The position numbers and the translations under genes were made by a program. From Candidatus Aenigmatarchaeota archaeon (lineage in GTDB: Archaea; Aenigmatarchaeota; Aenigmatarchaeia; Aenigmatarchaeales; JACQIB01): a stretch of DNA of 22,547 nucleotides. The stretch spans positions 16,498-39,044 of the forward strand of contig JAWABM010000005.1 of NCBI GenBank assembly GCA_038999215.1, written 5' to 3'. Of the stretch, positions 1-16,589 are shown piece after piece. The notes beneath the pieces are model-generated. The model did no database searches, was not told the DNA's origin, and saw nothing but the letters and a program-made list of their open reading frames with translations. Position 1 is the first letter of the stretch. The number at the start of each line of letters is the position of its first letter.

Positions 1-74
1 GCATGAATCTTTTTCAAAACAAAAAACATCTTACACCAGCCGGTTTTGAAAGGATTAAGAGGTTGTGGTTTGTC
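1..74 (+). mobile_element. 3' end of a putative intron/insertion in 16S rRNA helix 8 region
   Basis: Non-rRNA sequence abuts CGCGAAAGTGAGGCTAAT. The expected 5' arm of helix 8 (GGATAACCT, pairing with AGG at 85-87) is missing and replaced by coding-like DNA. Exact junction uncertain by a few nt. Confidence 0.6.

Positions 75-101
<27 letters not shown>
1..101 (+). CDS. 3' fragment of a probable LAGLIDADG homing endonuclease ORF (16S insertion-encoded), 5'-truncated by the window
   Basis: Frame starting at base 3 reads MNLFQNKKHLTPAGFERIKRLWFVRESEANAP* (TAG 99-101). KKHLTPAGFERIKRL resembles the 'K.HLT.EG...I..L' C-terminal motif of rRNA-intron LAGLIDADG enzymes. Bases 1-60 are AT-rich and not rRNA-like. 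Confidence 0.65.
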
Positions 102-2880: not shown

Positions 2881-3219
2881 TTACTTGATTCTCTGCGGTG
2901 CCGGAAGGTTCGGGCATGCGCCTGCGCACACCACGGTCTTGCAGCACAAATCCTGGTTCCTCGCATCCGTTGCGTAATCCTTGCACTTGGATTGGCAATA
3001 GTTGTACAGGTTCGTGTAGTTCAGGTACTTGAACGGTATGTTCGCCGTGTTGGAATCGCAGCCCCTGCTCTGCAGCTCGCTACAGGCCGCGTTTCTCGCC
3101 GAGTTCTCCGCCAGAACGTTGCCCGGGTTCGCGAAGTATATCGCTATCAGCCCGAGCATCACCAGCACTGCCACTGCTATTATGACGAGAACGTTCACCG
3201 GAAGCTCTATCCCTTTCAC
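2881..3219 (-). CDS. Class III signal peptide (pilin-like) protein, Cys-rich
   Basis: KG|IELPVNVLVIIAVAVLVMLGLIAIYF. GTG 3219 follows AGGTGA, complementary to this genome's anti-SD; alternative start 3228. Confidence 0.85.
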   Translation of the reverse strand: MKGIELPVNVLVIIAVAVLVMLGLIAIYFANPGNVLAENSARNAACSELQSRGCDSNTANIPFKYLNYTNLYNYCQSKCKDYATDARNQDLCCKTVVCAGACPNLPAPQRIK

Positions 3220-3264
3220 TGTTTTCACCTAAGACCTATTTGGGACACTATATATAAATAGTTT

Positions 3265-3564
3265 TCATGGCACGCTGCATCCGCAGAACTTCCTGCATTC
3301 GTTTGCTGTCGTTTTTCCGTAGCATTCGCTGCAGACCTCCTGCAGGTTCGTGATCAGCCTGCCGTTCTGCGTGAAGTTGGCCACCTTTATGTTTTTCGGA
3401 TCGTTGCTGCAGTCCTGCACCATCCTCAGGCAGGCGCTCGCCTTGGCCGAATCGCAGCTCATGCTCGGCGTCGTGAATATGAGCACGACCAGCGTTATCA
3501 GCACTATGACCGCCACAACGATTATGACCAGCACGTTTATTGGAAGTTCGAGCCCTTTTTTCAT
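3265..3564 (-). CDS. Class III signal peptide (pilin-like) protein, Cys-rich
   Basis: MKKG|LELPINVLVIIVVAVIVLITLVVLIF; paralog of 2881-3219. Confidence 0.85.
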   Translation of the reverse strand: MKKGLELPINVLVIIVVAVIVLITLVVLIFTTPSMSCDSAKASACLRMVQDCSNDPKNIKVANFTQNGRLITNLQEVCSECYGKTTANECRKFCGCSVP

Positions 3565-3597
3565 GGAAGAATTTTTGGTCGAACCGCCTTATAAGCT

Positions 3598-4569
3598 TTA
3601 TCCGCTTGAAACCTCGGCTTTCCTTGGCAGTTCGTAATCATAGTTTGTCAGGAACTCGAGCCTCGTGCTGTCGAAGCCGCCGGGATAGAGCGAGATGGAT
3701 TTGCTGTCCTCTATTGACACCTTGATTCCGAGCTTTACCAGGACCGTGTCTGTCCTTATCAGGGTGTCCTTTGTCACGCTTATGTTGAACGCATAGCCGT
3801 ACTTGCTGGCCAGGACCGATTCCATCTGCTCCCTTATATCGGATATTGCGCTGTTGGCCGCCTCGCTGTCATAGAAGTCAAGCCCGGCCAAGCCAGCCCG
3901 GTCGCCGAGCCCGCACTGGAACGAGTATTTTATGAACTCTGTGGCGTTCCTCTGCATCGCCTTGCATTCCTCGCCTAGCTTGCCTTTTAGGCTGTCGGCC
4001 GCCGAGGCGGCCAGCGCCCTGTCCTCGTTCTCGAACAGGTTGCGGCCGGCCCTGAGAAGGCCGAAATATGACGTTTTGACTGTCCTGTTGAACCTTCCAG
4101 AAGTCTCCACCGTGACCCTGGGGTTCTTTGCGTTGATTATGACGAACCTCTTGCCGCCGGACGCCGTCACATCGCTGTCCGTATGGCTTATTGAAAGGTC
4201 CGCAGCATCCCAGCTGACGGTCATGTTCTTGAAGAGCGTTATCTCCGATAGCCTGCCCATGTCGCCCGCCACGCTGTCGTTGAATTTTTCCTCCAGCTCG
4301 GCCATTGTGGGAGAGGCCGCCGACCACCTGGCAAAACCCCCGCCCTCGCTGCCGAGCGACGTTTGCCGCAGCAGCGAGAACCCGGCCGCCGAATCTATCG
4401 TCCTTTTCATCTCTTCCGCGGCCAGCTGCGCCGCATAAACGTGCCTTGCGCTGCTCGCTATGCTAACCCTCTTGTCGTACTCCACCGACTTGTCGAGCAC
4501 GAACAGCACGGTGACTATGATTATTATCACTATGCCCAATATGAAGGCTGTCGCCCCTTTCATCATCAT
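3598..4569 (-). CDS. Pilin-like / N-terminally anchored secreted protein (~323 aa)
   Basis: MMMKG|ATAFILGIVIIIIVTVLFVL then a soluble domain; ATGA overlap with the upstream stop. Confidence 0.8.
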   Translation of the reverse strand: MMMKGATAFILGIVIIIIVTVLFVLDKSVEYDKRVSIASSARHVYAAQLAAEEMKRTIDSAAGFSLLRQTSLGSEGGGFARWSAASPTMAELEEKFNDSVAGDMGRLSEITLFKNMTVSWDAADLSISHTDSDVTASGGKRFVIINAKNPRVTVETSGRFNRTVKTSYFGLLRAGRNLFENEDRALAASAADSLKGKLGEECKAMQRNATEFIKYSFQCGLGDRAGLAGLDFYDSEAANSAISDIREQMESVLASKYGYAFNISVTKDTLIRTDTVLVKLGIKVSIEDSKSISLYPGGFDSTRLEFLTNYDYELPRKAEVSSG

Positions 4570-5069
4570 CCGCTCCACAGGGACAGCGCGGCCCTGTCCT
4601 TTCCCGCCTGTACCACGTACTCGGTCCTCACTGCGTGCTCGGTGTGGACGCCCATCCTGGCAAGCTCGGTCTTCCGGCCGCCCGCCTCGAGCATGAGCGT
4701 GTAGGGCTTGTCCGTGAGCTGGCTCATTATGATGGCGCTGGACCTTTTCAGGTCTATCTCATTGCCGTTCAGCGTGAAGTTCGTGCTGCCAGCGCTCACC
4801 GAATAGGTCAGAAGGTCCCTGATCCTGTAGCCGTGGTCGGTGGTCTCCAGGTAGGAAATCATAATGTTGTCCGCGTTCGGCGAGTCGTAGAGCAGCACGC
4901 CGTTCACGTACACCGTGACGTTGACGTGCATTATGAACATCACCAGGGCCGCTATGAAGAGCATGGTCAGCGTGCCGAAAAGGGACGTTATGAATGTGAA
5001 TATGTCCGTGAGGTAGAATATCCCGCCTTTCCCTTTACGCCATGGCCTGTACCCTGACAACCATCTCAC
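4566..5069 (-). CDS. Pilin-like protein (~165 aa)
   Basis: RKGKG|GIFYLTDIF followed by a hydrophobic stretch; start uncertain (GTG 5069, or TTG 5060 after AGGTGA). Confidence 0.75.
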   Translation of the reverse strand: MRWLSGYRPWRKGKGGIFYLTDIFTFITSLFGTLTMLFIAALVMFIMHVNVTVYVNGVLLYDSPNADNIMISYLETTDHGYRIRDLLTYSVSAGSTNFTLNGNEIDLKRSSAIIMSQLTDKPYTLMLEAGGRKTELARMGVHTEHAVRTEYVVQAGKDRAALSLWSG

Positions 5070-5451
5070 CTGCCACTATCCTGTCTTCCGAAAACTTGAG
5101 CGAGACAGGGAACGTTCTCGTCTCGCCTTTTGTCGTCGCTCCGCCGAAGCTCCACGTCCTTCCGCCGCCCGTTATTTTCACGCTGTACACCGCATCCAGG
5201 TCGATGCACAGCTCCTTTGCGCTGTCCAGCTTGCTCACCTCGAACACGCCCCTCCTCGGCTCGCCGTTCACCGTCTCCGTGAGGCACGGCGCGGAAAGCG
5301 CGGCCTGCCCCAAGTTCAGCGTCATCCTGTCCGCGTCGAATATGACTATGCTCCCGTTGTACGATATCGACTGCATCACCATGCCGAGTATGCCGAATAT
5401 CAGTATCACGGTCGTCATCAGCTTCAGCAGGAACTCGGCTATTTCCATCAT
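5035..5451 (-). CDS. Pilin-like protein without a basic leader (138 aa)
   Basis: MMEIAEFLLKLMTTVILIFGILGMVM; ATG 5451 overlaps the upstream TGA (ATGA). The longer track start at 5556 lies inside the upstream gene. Confidence 0.75.
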   Translation of the reverse strand: MMEIAEFLLKLMTTVILIFGILGMVMQSISYNGSIVIFDADRMTLNLGQAALSAPCLTETVNGEPRRGVFEVSKLDSAKELCIDLDAVYSVKITGGGRTWSFGGATTKGETRTFPVSLKFSEDRIVAGEMVVRVQAMA

Positions 5452-5906
5452 TCGACACCCAATGTTATCTTGCCGTCCGTTTTGTTGACCACGAACGCCT
5501 TGTTTTCGGCCGGGTTCATCGTCACGTTGCCTGTCGCCACGTTCGTGCCCGCGCACCTGACATACGCTATCGGGCTCGGCGGGCCGAACTTCACGTACCC
5601 TCCCCTCTCGATGGTACGGCCTCCCCTGTAGGCGTCCTCAGGCGGCAGCACGTTTATGGTCTTCGCGCCGAGCACAGCTGTGAGCGGCGTCGGCGTCACT
5701 GCCAGCTCGACCGTCATGTTCCCGCCCCCTATGCAGCCTGCGCCTATGAAGCTGGCCAGCGAGTCCTGGACAGTCGAAGGCGCGGAATAGAGCATGTCCG
5801 AGACGAGCTGGGCGCCGTAGGTCACGGCCCAGTAGAACACCACGAATATCAGGACTATCACTCCCACCAGCACGATTATGTCGTAAAGCTGCGTGCCTCC
5901 CTTCAT
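5448..5906 (-). CDS. Class III signal peptide (pilin-like) protein (152 aa)
   Basis: MKG|GTQLYDIIVLVGVIVLIFVVFYW; GGAGG RBS and ATGA overlap at 5903-5906. Confidence 0.8.
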   Translation of the reverse strand: MKGGTQLYDIIVLVGVIVLIFVVFYWAVTYGAQLVSDMLYSAPSTVQDSLASFIGAGCIGGGNMTVELAVTPTPLTAVLGAKTINVLPPEDAYRGGRTIERGGYVKFGPPSPIAYVRCAGTNVATGNVTMNPAENKAFVVNKTDGKITLGVE

Positions 5907-7906
5907 TTGGCCGCCTCCGTGGCGTTGCCGAACGCCACCTTGCTGTAGTCGAGCGTGTACAGCCCTATCTCGTCCCCGCCCGTTATTATGAAGTTCTCCT
6001 TCCCTGCCTCCTTGAAGTACTTGTGCCAGCCCTGCTCCGATTCCGACCACTTCGCCACCGAGTCGCAGGTCCGCACCTGATTGCACAGGTCCGACGCCGT
6101 GGCGCTGTAGCCCTCGGGCACGATGAAATAGACGTACCTGAACGGCTCGATGCCGTATTCCGCGCCCTTCACGGCCTCCACTGCGCCCTCCCTCGCCGAG
6201 CCGAGCGCGACCATGCTCCAGTTGAACTTGCAGCTGCCCGACGCGTCGGCCAGCCTGAGGTACCTGAATGCGTAGCCGTCCTTCAGCAGCATCCTCGTCG
6301 TGTTGCCCTCCATCGAGGTCTCGGCTATCTTGGCCCAGCTCTTCGTGTCGTTGGATGCCTGCACCGTCACCGTGGTGTTACAGCCCTTGGCCGCCGGCTT
6401 CAGCGAGATGAATACGGTCCTTTCGTTCCTCACGGTGCCGAAGTCGTACGTGTGCGTCGCATAAGCGCCGCAGTTCTCGTAGTTGTGGTCTGCCCTAGAC
6501 TCGGCCGTCTCAAGGCACTCTTTGGTCGAGTTGCCCTTGATCAGCGAGCACATTACCCCTATCCTGGATTCGCTAATCCCCATGTAGCTCGTCAGCTGCT
6601 TCAGCGTGATGTTCCTGAAGTCTAGCGGCACCCTTTTCAGCTCGGACTCGGGCACGTCCGCATATATGTCCGGCTTTATCACCTTCACCAGGTCCGCGGG
6701 ATCGTCGCAGGTTATCTTCGTGGCGTTCTTCTCCGCGCCGTACTCGTACTTGAGGCAGCATGACATGAGGACGGAGCTGGCGCTGTCGAAGCTCTTGCAG
6801 CCCGACTGCATGTTAGCTTCCGTGAGCTCGCTGAAAGGCCAGCCCGGCCAGAGCGCGGCCGTTTCCGCGCAGGCCCCCGCTCCCCTGCAGTAGTCGACAT
6901 CCAGGCACGGTATCGGCGCCACCATCGCGATGAACTGCGTCCCGCTGGCGGGTATGGCCAGCTTCTTGCCGGCCGTCTTGGCTGCGAGCTTGGCGACGGC
7001 CTTGGCGCTGGGCTTCGACCCGAGCGAAAGCACGTCGGTGATCAGGTCGACGACATAGCATCCTGTTTCCGCGCTGTACGCCGTCAGAAGAGACGCGAGC
7101 GTCCCCTCGTCGGAATAGCAGTAGTTGGAGGCGTCCCCAGCGCTGCACTTGTCTACATAGCCGTAGATCGTGCTTCTTCCGCCCTCCTTGCCCACGTCGT
7201 CCCCCCTCCTGAACGTCACCTTGCCGTAGCAGGGCGCTATGAGATAGAATGTCGGGTCGTTGTCCGCTATCAGCATTCCGTCCCTGACTATCCTCACGTT
7301 CGTCACGTTCGGCGAGCTTATCTTGACCACCTCCTCTCTCCCGCGGATGTTGAAGCAGAGCGCGTTCCCGCTCGTGCAGGGCTCTTCCAAATACTTGGTC
7401 TTGAAGAACTCCTTGAACTGCGTGGTTGTCGGCCTCACGTCCCATGGCCTCTGCCCCGCGAACGAGCGCTCGAACGGATACGACTCCGAGAAGTGGAACA
7501 GGCTCTTCAGCTTCTCGTACGCGTCGACGGCGGCTACGCCCGTGGCGGGCTTTTCGCCGGGCGTGAACACGCTCTCGACAGGCTTCTTCGGGAACTCCTT
7601 GTAGTAGGCCATGTATTCCGGCACCATCATCCCCATGTAGGCTTGCACATAGCCCACGCCGTAGAGCGAGAACGTGTCCTCCTGGCAGAACCTGACGGAA
7701 GCGACGTTGCACGGCTTGCCTGTCACAGGGTCCTTGTAGTTCTCGTAGTTGCCCGCGCACTCTATGGCCCTCTTCATCTCCTCGATGCTCAGCCTGGCAA
7801 GCTCGTCGCAGTTCGAGCGGGGGAACACGACATACACGAGTATCAGCGTGAGTATGGCTATGATGACGGAGACCGCGAACATGACGGCGTGCGATGTCCC
7901 GCGCAT
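5903..7906 (-). CDS. Large Cys-rich pilin-like/adhesin candidate with a discoidin (F5/8 type C)-like domain (667 aa)
   Basis: MRG|TSHAVMFAVSVIIAILTLILVYVVF, many Cys, and VTVQASNDTKSWAKI...FRYLRL, the typical discoidin/galactose-binding fold pattern. Confidence 0.8.
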   Translation of the reverse strand: MRGTSHAVMFAVSVIIAILTLILVYVVFPRSNCDELARLSIEEMKRAIECAGNYENYKDPVTGKPCNVASVRFCQEDTFSLYGVGYVQAYMGMMVPEYMAYYKEFPKKPVESVFTPGEKPATGVAAVDAYEKLKSLFHFSESYPFERSFAGQRPWDVRPTTTQFKEFFKTKYLEEPCTSGNALCFNIRGREEVVKISSPNVTNVRIVRDGMLIADNDPTFYLIAPCYGKVTFRRGDDVGKEGGRSTIYGYVDKCSAGDASNYCYSDEGTLASLLTAYSAETGCYVVDLITDVLSLGSKPSAKAVAKLAAKTAGKKLAIPASGTQFIAMVAPIPCLDVDYCRGAGACAETAALWPGWPFSELTEANMQSGCKSFDSASSVLMSCCLKYEYGAEKNATKITCDDPADLVKVIKPDIYADVPESELKRVPLDFRNITLKQLTSYMGISESRIGVMCSLIKGNSTKECLETAESRADHNYENCGAYATHTYDFGTVRNERTVFISLKPAAKGCNTTVTVQASNDTKSWAKIAETSMEGNTTRMLLKDGYAFRYLRLADASGSCKFNWSMVALGSAREGAVEAVKGAEYGIEPFRYVYFIVPEGYSATASDLCNQVRTCDSVAKWSESEQGWHKYFKEAGKENFIITGGDEIGLYTLDYSKVAFGNATEAAK

Positions 7907-13954: not shown

Positions 13955-16188
13955 GACACCTTCTTTGCGGAATCCTTGAACCATGCGAGCCATTCGTCAT
14001 AGACTCGCCTGCTGTCCACATCGCCTGTCTCCTTCCTGCTTTTTTCGCAGAGCGAGTGGAACATCTGGTTTGAGGCCACGGTAGTCTCCGCCTCCATCAG
14101 CTCCCTGTTGCCGGTCTGCCTGGCTATGTCGACGATCGACTGGAGCACCTTCCCCCTGAGCTGTATGTTGTCCCATATCGCGTCCCACCTTCCGGCCCAG
14201 CCCGGCACGCTCTTGGATATCTGGTTTATCACGTAGCTTTCCCCGTTCATCAGCGTGTCCGTGGGCCTGAGCGAATCGCTGTCGCTGCTGTATTCAAGCA
14301 GGTTTACGAAGCCGTGCTCCTGCACAGGGTCCTTCTGCCAGTGCTTCCTCACCTCGGTGACTTCCGTCACCCTTCGCAGGCTCCTCAGCCCGTCCGGCGT
14401 CCTGAGCTTGTTGCACACCACCACGAGGTCGGTCGCCTTGAAGCTGGTCGGAGGCACGCCCAGGTCGTTCACGACCCTGTCGAACACTCCGTACGCCGAT
14501 TCGCCGTGTATGGTGCCGGCCACGACGTTGGCGAGCGCGCCGATGCGCATGGCTTCGTAGAGCGCCTTCGCCTCCACCGAACGGACCTCCCCGATGAACA
14601 GGCAGGAATCGCCGAGACGCAGCGCGGTGCGCAGCGCCTCCTCGGCCGGAAGCTCGAGCTCGACTCTTGTTATCACGGAGCGCGACTTTAGGCGCTCGAT
14701 GTTGTAGCCCAGCGAGCGCAGCGCCTCGACCGGAAGCTCGAATGTGTCCTCGACCGTGATTATCCTGTAATACGGTATCACCTGCAGCATTATCGAGCCC
14801 AGGAGCGACGTTTTGCCCGCCCCTCGCGTGCCCGCCACCAGCAGCGTTCTCCCGTATGAGGCCATGAACCACAGCAGGCCTGCGAAGAGGGGGTTGAAGA
14901 ATTTCGCGTCAAGGTAGAGCGGGAACGTCCACGGCTTGAACCTGTGCCTCCTCAGCGCGAACGCCAGCCCTTCCGGAGACAGCCGTGGCGCTATCGCCGC
15001 GACCCTTGCCACGCCTCCAGGCACCGCTATCTCTGTGTCGAGCACAGGGTTCGCCTCGTCCAGCGGCCGCCCGCTCAGAAGCTTGAACCTTGTGGAAAGG
15101 CGCTCTGCGTCGGTCACTGTCGGTATGAGGTTGGTCTCGCACTCGTCGAACTCCTGGTGGTTCACGAAGAGCGGCGTCCTGCCGAGCGGGCTGTTGATGT
15201 TTATGTCCTGTATCTTGGGGTCCGCGAGCAGCGGCTCTATTATACCGAATCCGGCCGTGTTGCGCGTCAGTATGGCGGCGAGCCTGGCCATCTGCTCCGA
15301 GCTCATCTTGAAGGCCCTGACGTCGGCCAGGTCCCTTATCAGCTCCTCGCTTATGGACTGGAATATCTCCCTCATCCTCTGCTGCTCCTTCATCTCAAGC
15401 TCGTGCGGCCTGCGCTTCTCCAGCACCCTGCGGGCGTCGTCGAGCAGGGTGTACTCCTCCTCGGTCAGCCTGAACTCCGGCGGAACAATGAAGTATATCG
15501 GCCTCACCTTGCCGGGCACCTTGTAAATCTCGACCTTTATGTCGCCTATGTCGTACTTGGAGAGCAGGTCGCCTTTCGGGGGCATTGTCACGTATTTGGT
15601 GAACATGAAGCTGGGCCTGGTGAGCGGATGGAACAGCTTCCTGTATACCGCCCTGTCGCCGACCTTGAGGCCGGCTATGAAGGGCTGCGCCCTCTTGATC
15701 AGCTCGGTCCGCTCGAGCACGTCCCTTATCGGCAGCAGCACGTTGTTCAGGTAGGCGTCCATGCACTCCTTGTCGACGCCCTTTTCATGCAGTATCCTGA
15801 CGTGGCGTATCTCCCTCAGCAGGCTCACGTACGCGCCTATCGGGTCGCCCCTCAGCTGGAACGTGGCGAAATTGTACAGCCACGAGTACCAGGCCGAACG
15901 GTACTTGTCGCACTTCACCGGCCCGAGCGCCTGCTGCGAGATGAGCTTCCGCTCCTTGGTTATCTCTATTATCGCGCCCGCTATCTCCGACAGCATCGCG
16001 GTCTGCTCGTAATCGTACTCATTGTCCCTTGTCTCGGTCAGAATTATCGTGTGGACCTTGCGGTCCGTGACCAGGCGGTCGATTACCCTGGCCATTATAA
16101 CGTCGAAGTCCTCTATGTTGGACCCGAATATTCCTCCGAGGCAGTTCATCTTCAGGACTCCGTTTTCGACTTCGATTTCATATACCAT
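13951..16188 (-). CDS. Type II/IV secretion system ATPase (PilB/TadA/VirB11/ArlI family), 745 aa
   Basis: GFGIIEPLLADPKIQDININ, Walker A GTRGAGKTS, Asp box ITVEDTFEL, ALRLG..., Walker B LFIGEVR, His box GTIHG. Confidence 0.95.
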   Translation of the reverse strand: MVYEIEVENGVLKMNCLGGIFGSNIEDFDVIMARVIDRLVTDRKVHTIILTETRDNEYDYEQTAMLSEIAGAIIEITKERKLISQQALGPVKCDKYRSAWYSWLYNFATFQLRGDPIGAYVSLLREIRHVRILHEKGVDKECMDAYLNNVLLPIRDVLERTELIKRAQPFIAGLKVGDRAVYRKLFHPLTRPSFMFTKYVTMPPKGDLLSKYDIGDIKVEIYKVPGKVRPIYFIVPPEFRLTEEEYTLLDDARRVLEKRRPHELEMKEQQRMREIFQSISEELIRDLADVRAFKMSSEQMARLAAILTRNTAGFGIIEPLLADPKIQDININSPLGRTPLFVNHQEFDECETNLIPTVTDAERLSTRFKLLSGRPLDEANPVLDTEIAVPGGVARVAAIAPRLSPEGLAFALRRHRFKPWTFPLYLDAKFFNPLFAGLLWFMASYGRTLLVAGTRGAGKTSLLGSIMLQVIPYYRIITVEDTFELPVEALRSLGYNIERLKSRSVITRVELELPAEEALRTALRLGDSCLFIGEVRSVEAKALYEAMRIGALANVVAGTIHGESAYGVFDRVVNDLGVPPTSFKATDLVVVCNKLRTPDGLRSLRRVTEVTEVRKHWQKDPVQEHGFVNLLEYSSDSDSLRPTDTLMNGESYVINQISKSVPGWAGRWDAIWDNIQLRGKVLQSIVDIARQTGNRELMEAETTVASNQMFHSLCEKSRKETGDVDSRRVYDEWLAWFKDSAKKVS

Positions 16189-16205
16189 GGACAGTCCTCG
16201 AACAA

Positions 16206-16259: not shown

Positions 16260-16589
16260 ATGGCTGAGCTGGACATCCAGGCTGTTCTTAACGAGGCCTA
16301 CAGGAGGCTTAACGAGGACACTCGCAGGCTCCGCGCCCTTGAGGAAAGGAGCGACCTGCTCGAGAGCAGGATAGGCAGGCTTGAAGGCGACATTCTCAGG
16401 GTGCAGGACGACTCAAGAAAGAGGTTTGACGCGGTTGCAGCGGCGATGAAAGGTCTCGAGGAGAGGATGGTGCTCCTGGATAATGAGATAACCAAGCTGA
16501 ACAAGCTTATGGAGAAGACCGCCAGGAAGAGCGAGGTCGACGCGCTCCAGAACCTTGTTGAGCTCTACAATCCGTTCAAGAAGAAGTGA
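16260..16589 (+). CDS. Coiled-coil hypothetical protein ending in YNPF (109 aa)
   Basis: Heptad-rich sequence; GTGAT RBS; C-terminal ...LVELYNPFKKK. Confidence 0.85.
   Translation: MAELDIQAVLNEAYRRLNEDTRRLRALEERSDLLESRIGRLEGDILRVQDDSRKRFDAVAAAMKGLEERMVLLDNEITKLNKLMEKTARKSEVDALQNLVELYNPFKKK

Follow-up and report, generated by a model that had tools for sequence, protein, structure and literature searches.

Within the 16S rRNA gene of a Candidatus Aenigmatarchaeota archaeon, helix 8 is interrupted by DNA that encodes an open reading frame (ORF) without a stop codon of its own, which runs on into the rRNA exon and terminates there. The locus thus raises two questions, namely what kind of element has been inserted and how a protein could be produced from a gene that ends inside 16S rRNA. 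The window analyzed here is the whole stretch of 22,547 nucleotides (G000:C5:16498-39044), which opens inside the insert; features upstream of it are given in coordinates of the same contig (C5).

Position and boundaries of the insert

A covariance model of the small-subunit (SSU) rRNA was matched over all of its positions 1-1478, with a 420-position insert in the loop of helix 8 and one short insert further on, which bears out the preliminary description in that non-rRNA DNA is joined to 16S helix 8. The same model finds a complete archaeal 16S 5' exon upstream of the insert (exon 1, C5 16024-16158, + strand, upstream of the window), where that description had suggested looking for one. Given this complete exon and the occurrence of the same architecture elsewhere, a chimeric or truncated 16S gene was rejected. 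Alignment to E. coli 16S rRNA places the first intron after A161, in the helix 8 tetraloop, rather than at 155-160 as initially estimated, and the second after G727. The A161 intron, which has a GC content of 0.34, starts at C5 16159 and measures 419 nt as assembled with 10 N, or about 424 nt with a gap of 15 nt. Upstream of the window and on the + strand, it carries the 5' arm of its terminal stem (C5 16160-16170), a TATA-like box (16173-16180), a palindrome that may be a hairpin or a homing-site mimic (16181-16203), and the ATG of the ORF (16205), whose LAGLIDADG motif occupies codons 5-15. The 10-N scaffold gap (16488-16497) falls inside this ORF, directly 5' of window base 1.

In the window itself, where all features described here are likewise on the + strand, the 3' end of the intron occupies bases 1-80, and the last 32 codons and the stop of a single-motif LAGLIDADG ORF of about 132 aa in total occupy bases 3-101; within this ORF, the ATG at 3-5 codes for an internal Met. 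The 3' arm of the terminal stem (h', 64-74) overlaps a conserved Trp codon and forms eight Watson-Crick pairs at 67-74, or 11 pairs with a G-U extension. One strand of the 4-bp central helix of the BHB motif (75-78) and a 3-nt bulge (79-81) follow, with the predicted 3' splice site at 80/81. The 3' exon junction therefore does not lie near base 74, as had been supposed, but between bases 80 and 81: bases 67-80 are the 3' arm, central helix, and bulge of the intron, and they imitate exon sequence because the CGCG of the central helix is a palindrome. Any unspliced transcript would find six rRNA-exon codons and a TAG stop at 81-101. Exon 2 of the 16S rRNA (81-606) is followed by the second intron (607-651) and exon 3 (652-1474). 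This second intron, a 45-nt hairpin with a strict BHB after G727, is absent as numbered from the 13 loci in the available text of PMC4496867 (the nearest being 722), and inserts near G727 are also present in several relatives.

The expectation that the site would prove 5' of the known archaeal 16S intron loci is confirmed by comparison with the 13 loci listed in the accessible part of PMC4496867, which span 374 to 1391 and do not include 161. Archaeal group I introns, as listed in the part of PMC6125680 that was available, occur in the SSU only at 1498. Ten 16S intron sites of the bacterial CPR are numbered in the accessible portion of PMC11270868, and a CPR insertion close to 161 may exist. 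A literature search on DPANN 16S introns returned no description of the A161 site, an absence that carries little weight since most archaeal intron papers from 1988-2003 lay outside the search. A161 is a 5'-proximal 16S intron site that was not found in the published lists compared and that recurs across DPANN lineages.

Intron type and splicing machinery

Folded together, the two intron ends give a stem and a 4-bp helix, with one 3-nt bulge between them and a second bulge beyond the helix. Cleavage of BHB motifs falls after the second base of each bulge, and a cut at this position restores the GAAA tetraloop; removal of the intron gives a GAAA loop in all 12 introns compared. In 19 introns (these 12 and seven more), the central helix consists of four standard pairs and occurs in four sequence versions, although the scripts required pairing and the pattern that retrieved the seven additional introns prescribes part of this helix. 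The terminal stems vary in sequence among introns and retain their pairing. On the exon side, all 12 introns have a weak helix, with at most two of four pairs and never two stacked beside the bulge, which falls short of a strict BHB. Judged by its predicted pairing, the motif of the query intron is of the relaxed HBh' type, a described form that, according to the accessible text of PMC5829648, needs two-subunit or epsilon-type endonucleases.

The host encodes two adjacent splicing-endonuclease subunit genes as well as RtcB. The pair, of 162 and 179 aa, lies at 1300-2324 of L003 (G000:C9). The 179-aa alpha-like subunit has 3iey_A as its nearest PDB entry, with which it shares a basic loop insert; its Tyr and His are kept, and an Ala is aligned with the catalytic Lys, while the 162-aa subunit is without the His. 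From what is established for archaea in general, the intron would be cut from the pre-rRNA by the splicing endonuclease of the host and RtcB, with restoration of the helix 8 tetraloop.

An Rfam search of the intron region gave no group I or group II match up to E=1, on which ground a group I/II intron was rejected. On these sequence features, the insert is almost certainly an archaeal BHB intron in 16S rRNA. The earlier proposal of a mobile intron encoding a LAGLIDADG protein, which had named BHB and group I as candidates, thus stands as to the protein and is settled for the BHB type, and the distribution pattern fits mobility. In a search of sequencing runs, none contained more than 0.14 of the intron words, and the four runs mapped cover exon 1 of other organisms and nothing of the intron. 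With regard to other RNA genes of the genome, ARAGORN returned 22 tRNA calls with introns, many of about 40 nt, some of which look spurious. The 23S gene (L321, G000:C6:8235-11686) is unlinked from the 16S gene and spans 3452 nt versus the 2987 positions of the model; it contains no long endonuclease-like ATG ORF and no low-GC 100-nt block, and perhaps harbors several short inserts.

The LAGLIDADG ORF

The ORF occupies all of the intron but 46 nt. Frame 3 of the window encodes the KKHLTPAGFERIKRL motif, stays open through the junction, and ends at TAG 99-101, as had been described, except that it reads six codons into the rRNA and not eight, given the junction at 80/81. The resemblance of KKHLTPAGFERIKRL to LAGLIDADG C-termini, pointed out previously, is borne out by the upstream part of the ORF, whose first 94 codons match LAGLIDADG_1 (Pfam PF00961) with E 4.6e-13 and 50.4 bits versus a cut-off of 23.1. 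E13, Q40, and K91 are invariant in alignment A1, which includes the N-terminal 94 aa of the query, and catalytic roles are assigned to them by analogy with I-CreI. A model of the closest homolog, P0001 (pLDDT 82), has the alpha-beta-beta-alpha-beta-beta-alpha LAGLIDADG fold and is nearest to I-TnaI, I-CreI, and I-Vdi141I; its last helix ends at residue 123, and pLDDT is <50 for residues 128-133, which puts the exon-derived tail beyond the fold. The query ORF would accordingly be read as a putative homodimeric, single-motif LAGLIDADG homing endonuclease. Its predicted homing site, the DNA of helix 8, is pseudo-palindromic at six of nine arm positions. From what is established for archaea, the endonuclease would cut this DNA in intron-less alleles, and the intron would then be copied in.

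As assembled, the 10 N break the frame of the ORF. A decaying pseudogene, or a local mis-assembly in which the gap hides a lesion, would account for this, and decay does occur in the family, with one relative frameshifted (L108), one without an ATG (L104), and ten remnants. For the query copy, such a reading is nevertheless highly improbable, as both flanks of the gap are open, the N-terminal part of the protein is 76% identical to its best homolog, and the motif residues are kept. Moreover, a 6-residue filler scores best in four of four close homologs, indicating a true gap of about 15 nt, in frame, and a protein of 132 aa, and a chimeric origin of the feature is excluded by the same architecture in nine other introns.

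Distribution and mobility

Ten distinct gene-bearing A161 introns are known from this work (the query, L024, L025, L026, L027, L104, L105, L107, L108, and L185), the set being compiled from the loci of metagenome and genome scans together with a search of the phylum, with duplicates removed. The scans yielded 159 loci, of which ten include 16S sequence and nine have the gene at the A161 site; the search of the phylum found a match in 22 of 371 genomes, five of them strong. Hosts include Ca. Aenigmarchaeota (L104 and L105, both in genomes of the query's class), Micrarchaeaceae (L107), and Parvarchaeota (L108). A word search recovered ten proteins, nine of which have C-terminal tails that translate exon 2, and among the 150 proteins listed, exon-like tails were seen by eye in 11 of the 15 short ones. 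The protein tree is poorly resolved.

A junction pattern was matched in 34 of the 371 same-phylum genomes, 15 of which have an intron at the site, the others being intron-less. These 15, a lower bound, comprise five introns with a full-length gene and ten remnants of 29-254 nt; 241 of the 371 genomes match this 16S region. One intron, L212 (G032), is a 29-nt minimal hairpin after A161 and represents an end state of decay. The exact 22-bp site of the query is intron-less in two genomes, one of which belongs to the same family. Patchy distribution, intron-less alleles, and decayed remnants, all taken from sequence comparison, fit intron mobility, and the coexistence of full, decayed, and empty states observed at A161 fits the homing life cycle described in the available text of PMC2602781. 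A locus search of genome contigs with the single protein was negative, viral contigs contained only distant LAGLIDADG genes, and samples of 401 and 301 genomes around two non-Aenigmarchaeota hosts held no member beyond those hosts.

At other sites, the 16S genes L007, L008, L009, L011, L014, L017, L023, L105, and L108 contain many more ORF-bearing inserts, of about 580-990 nt; some of their ORFs do not look like LAGLIDADG genes, and several seem to end in the exon. Elsewhere in the window, a series of small ORFs on the minus strand occupies 3000-6000; with hydrophobic helices at their N-termini, their products by eye resemble proteins with a class III signal (pilin-like).

The missing intron stop

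All ten gene-bearing introns are without a stop in their last 30 intron codons. The exon-encoded tails are in phase 0 with 6 aa in seven of the ten and in phase 1 with 1-3 aa in three. Selection against the third phase, in which tails would have 9-48 aa, was considered and set aside as weak: the phase is never seen, but the two phases that do occur are clustered on the tree. Given that a linear excised intron would be a stop-less message, the protein must come from unspliced RNA or from a circle.

Joining the ends of the query intron in silico, a check proposed in the preliminary description, does bring up a stop, after an 18-aa tail versus the 6 aa of the precursor. Different C-termini are therefore formally possible, as had been anticipated. 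Two functional protein isoforms, on the other hand, are not supported by the sequences and the model, in which the circle tails are unconserved and the exon tail is disordered. Translation of the ligated circle in the manner of I-DmoI, with both isoforms existing and the exon stop used only when the precursor is occasionally translated, has several points in its favor: the circularized 23S intron of D. mobilis codes for an endonuclease of 194 aa (PMC11724312, in the part accessible), stable circles arise from archaeal rRNA introns that contain ORFs (PMC3326292, likewise), the host has RtcB, and every circle has an in-frame stop, which overlaps the start codon in two of ten. This route appears rather unlikely all the same. 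Across the ten introns, the circle tails would be 18, 17, 9, 11, 6, 26, 5, 2, 0, and 22 aa long and have no common sequence, the P0001 model has the exon-derived tail beyond its last helix, the start codon of the query is within a hairpin in long RNA, and a conserved TATA-like box in the intron is left unexplained. A conserved circle isoform or a coupling of stop and start on the circle was also rejected, the tails being unconserved and the overlap confined to two of ten, as was an endless rolling-circle ORF, since a stop is present in every circle, even the one with a length divisible by 3.

A candidate promoter inside the intron

The TATA-like box was evaluated against a host reference of 536 upstream regions of crudely called genes, in which the TATA signal peaks 28-30 nt before the ATG and has a shoulder out to 41 nt. 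TTTA[AT] occurs 27-48 nt before the start in all ten introns, where the expectation is 0.7 on the basis of their coding bodies and 1.4 after shuffling; the 27-48 nt range was chosen after inspection of the data, and eight of the ten boxes are within the host's 27-41 range. In intron numbering, a TTTA[AT] box is present at nt 13-23 in nine of ten introns versus none of nine remnants, L235 being left out of the ten. On the host-trained matrix, the query box scores 8.2 (host upper quartile, 7.4; p=0.002), and p is <0.05 for four and <0.1 for seven of the ten boxes, values that are overstated because the A161 introns are kin. In the query, 32 nt separate the box from the ATG, which puts it 2 nt beyond the host peak, and the A-rich run found upstream of host boxes is absent. 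The intron leaders have a mean identity of 47%. A start predicted 29 nt past the box falls from 19 nt before to 2 nt after the start codon in ten of ten introns. In five of ten introns, the query among them, the TTT at the front of the box is paired at >=0.7 with the 3' end of the intron, so that RNA structure explains part of the conservation of the box.

This pairing enters into another explanation, by which the absence of a stop and the presence of a TATA-like box are both incidental to the compactness and AT-richness of an intron whose ORF overlaps its terminal stem, and translation takes place at a low level from the pre-rRNA, the circle, or both, with no regulation of its own. The conserved Trp is separated from the BHB helix by only about two free codons, too little room for a stop to be expected by chance; half of the family has its TTT paired with 3'-end codons; several intron ORFs at other sites also seem to pass their 3' boundaries, though these boundaries are rough; and the clustering of the two reading phases on the tree implies few independent events. 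We consider this explanation quite unlikely. In eight of ten introns, the final four box bases are largely free of pairing with the 3' end, the box is wholly unpaired in L185, and the remnants keep their terminal stems while a box at nt 13-23 is absent from nine of nine. In addition, by eye, near boxes (27 and 29 nt) come without a ribosome-binding-like sequence and far ones (36-45 nt) with one, as in real promoters.

On the sequence evidence, the main source of the endonuclease is probably a TATA promoter of its own within the intron, the best-fitting mechanism and one placed ahead of the circle route, with a likelihood slightly better than even. The promoter, just inside the 5' terminal stem, would start transcription at about intron nt 44-47. 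The resulting RNA would be unspliceable: since the 5' BHB strand is missing, the splice motif cannot form and the transcript must use the exon stop, ending translation in exon 2. One main product of 132 aa with a short, disordered, exon-derived tail would be expected, and the exon stop could thus be explained by the internal promoter rather than by two isoforms. The overall model, in which a mobile BHB intron at 161 encodes a homodimeric endonuclease that is expressed from an internal promoter with an exon stop, is favored with moderate confidence. An internal promoter as the rule for DPANN 16S intron ORFs was rejected, as only three of 17 ORFs at other sites reach p<0.05 (combined p 0.065; starts uncertain). 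A search on internal promoters in archaeal rRNA introns found no publication, with most archaeal intron papers of 1988-2003 outside its reach.

Hairpin and homing-site resemblance at the start region

The long RNA of the query is predicted to form a 12-bp hairpin (z -3.3) over its start codon and the bases around it, with pairing of 0.7-1.0; the hairpin disappears from the predicted short transcript, which is almost unstructured here. The hairpin would thereby cover the start codon in both the pre-rRNA and the excised circle. A significant hairpin of the start region is found in three of the ten introns. The palindrome of the query also resembles its homing site, matching 14 of 18 arm positions around a center of 5 bp, not 4 bp. 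When the own site of each intron was compared with 430 decoy 16S sites, p was <=0.007 in three of ten and 0.05-0.07 in two, and the result was null in five; the right arm of the palindrome is at the ribosome-binding-site position, which confounds the mimic match. Both the hairpin and the mimic overlap the TATA-like promoter region in the query. The best homing-site mimic, with the native 4-bp spacing, is at nt 39-80 of the L104 intron, whose ORF is without an in-frame ATG and has an out-of-frame ATG nearby.

It is tempting, if speculative and on balance doubtful, to regard the DPANN introns at position 161 as self-contained, self-regulating cassettes convergent with T4 I-TevI, which would combine an internal promoter, an mRNA that escapes splicing, an exon stop, silencing of the ORF by a hairpin in pre-rRNA and circle, and autorepression by the dimer through an uncleavable copy of the homing site located over the start. 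If this were true, translation of circles, the textbook route for archaeal intron endonucleases, would not be the rule.

Significance

The query is a genuine archaeal BHB homing intron at a site not found in the lists compared, with an exon stop that is family-wide. In the literature found, protein production from archaeal rRNA-intron genes rests on a few hyperthermophile examples with stable circles. The A161 family provides a compact and testable alternative to the circle route, for which the remnants without the box serve as natural controls. It also adds very small endonucleases (about 132 aa) aimed at helix 8, and its recurrent insertion in DPANN has consequences for the assembly of these archaea and for full-length 16S amplicons.

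Comparison with known systems

I-DmoI is a two-motif monomer, and its intron ORF has no stop within the intron and can acquire alternative C-termini. Its host intron, in the 23S gene of Desulfurococcus mobilis, is likewise an archaeal rRNA intron, known for the coding circle cited above (PMC11724312, available in part). Unlike it, the A161 family has an unconserved circle tail and a TATA-like box inside the intron. Closer in enzyme type is the I-Vdi141I intron at L1927 of the Vulcanisaeta distributa 23S gene (PDB 3e54), also an archaeal rRNA intron that, according to the accessible text of PMC2602781, encodes a single-motif homodimeric LAGLIDADG enzyme with a pseudo-palindromic rDNA site. The structure of I-Vdi141I matches the P0001 model with a TM of 0.79 at 26% identity; it is, however, a 169-aa enzyme from a 23S intron of a hyperthermophile, whereas the query encodes about 132 aa in 16S helix 8 of a DPANN archaeon. 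Neither a promoter nor an exon stop is mentioned for I-Vdi141I in that text. The 16S BHB introns of Thermoproteales, Desulfurococcales, and Aigarchaeota, as presented in the available part of PMC4496867, have BHB junctions as well, with full-length, hairpin, and remnant forms at one locus, but they occupy loci 374-1391, with 161 absent, and DPANN hosts are not covered there.

In terms of regulation, the nearest likeness is phage T4 I-TevI, for which the accessible text of PMC2988022 describes an intron promoter, a hairpin that hides the start in long transcripts, and an operator resembling the homing site. I-TevI is a GIY-YIG enzyme from a group I intron with a phage promoter, all of it experimental (PMC2988022), in contrast to the archaeal TATA promoter and LAGLIDADG dimer of the A161 introns, all of which are inferred and in which the mimic is clear in three of ten.
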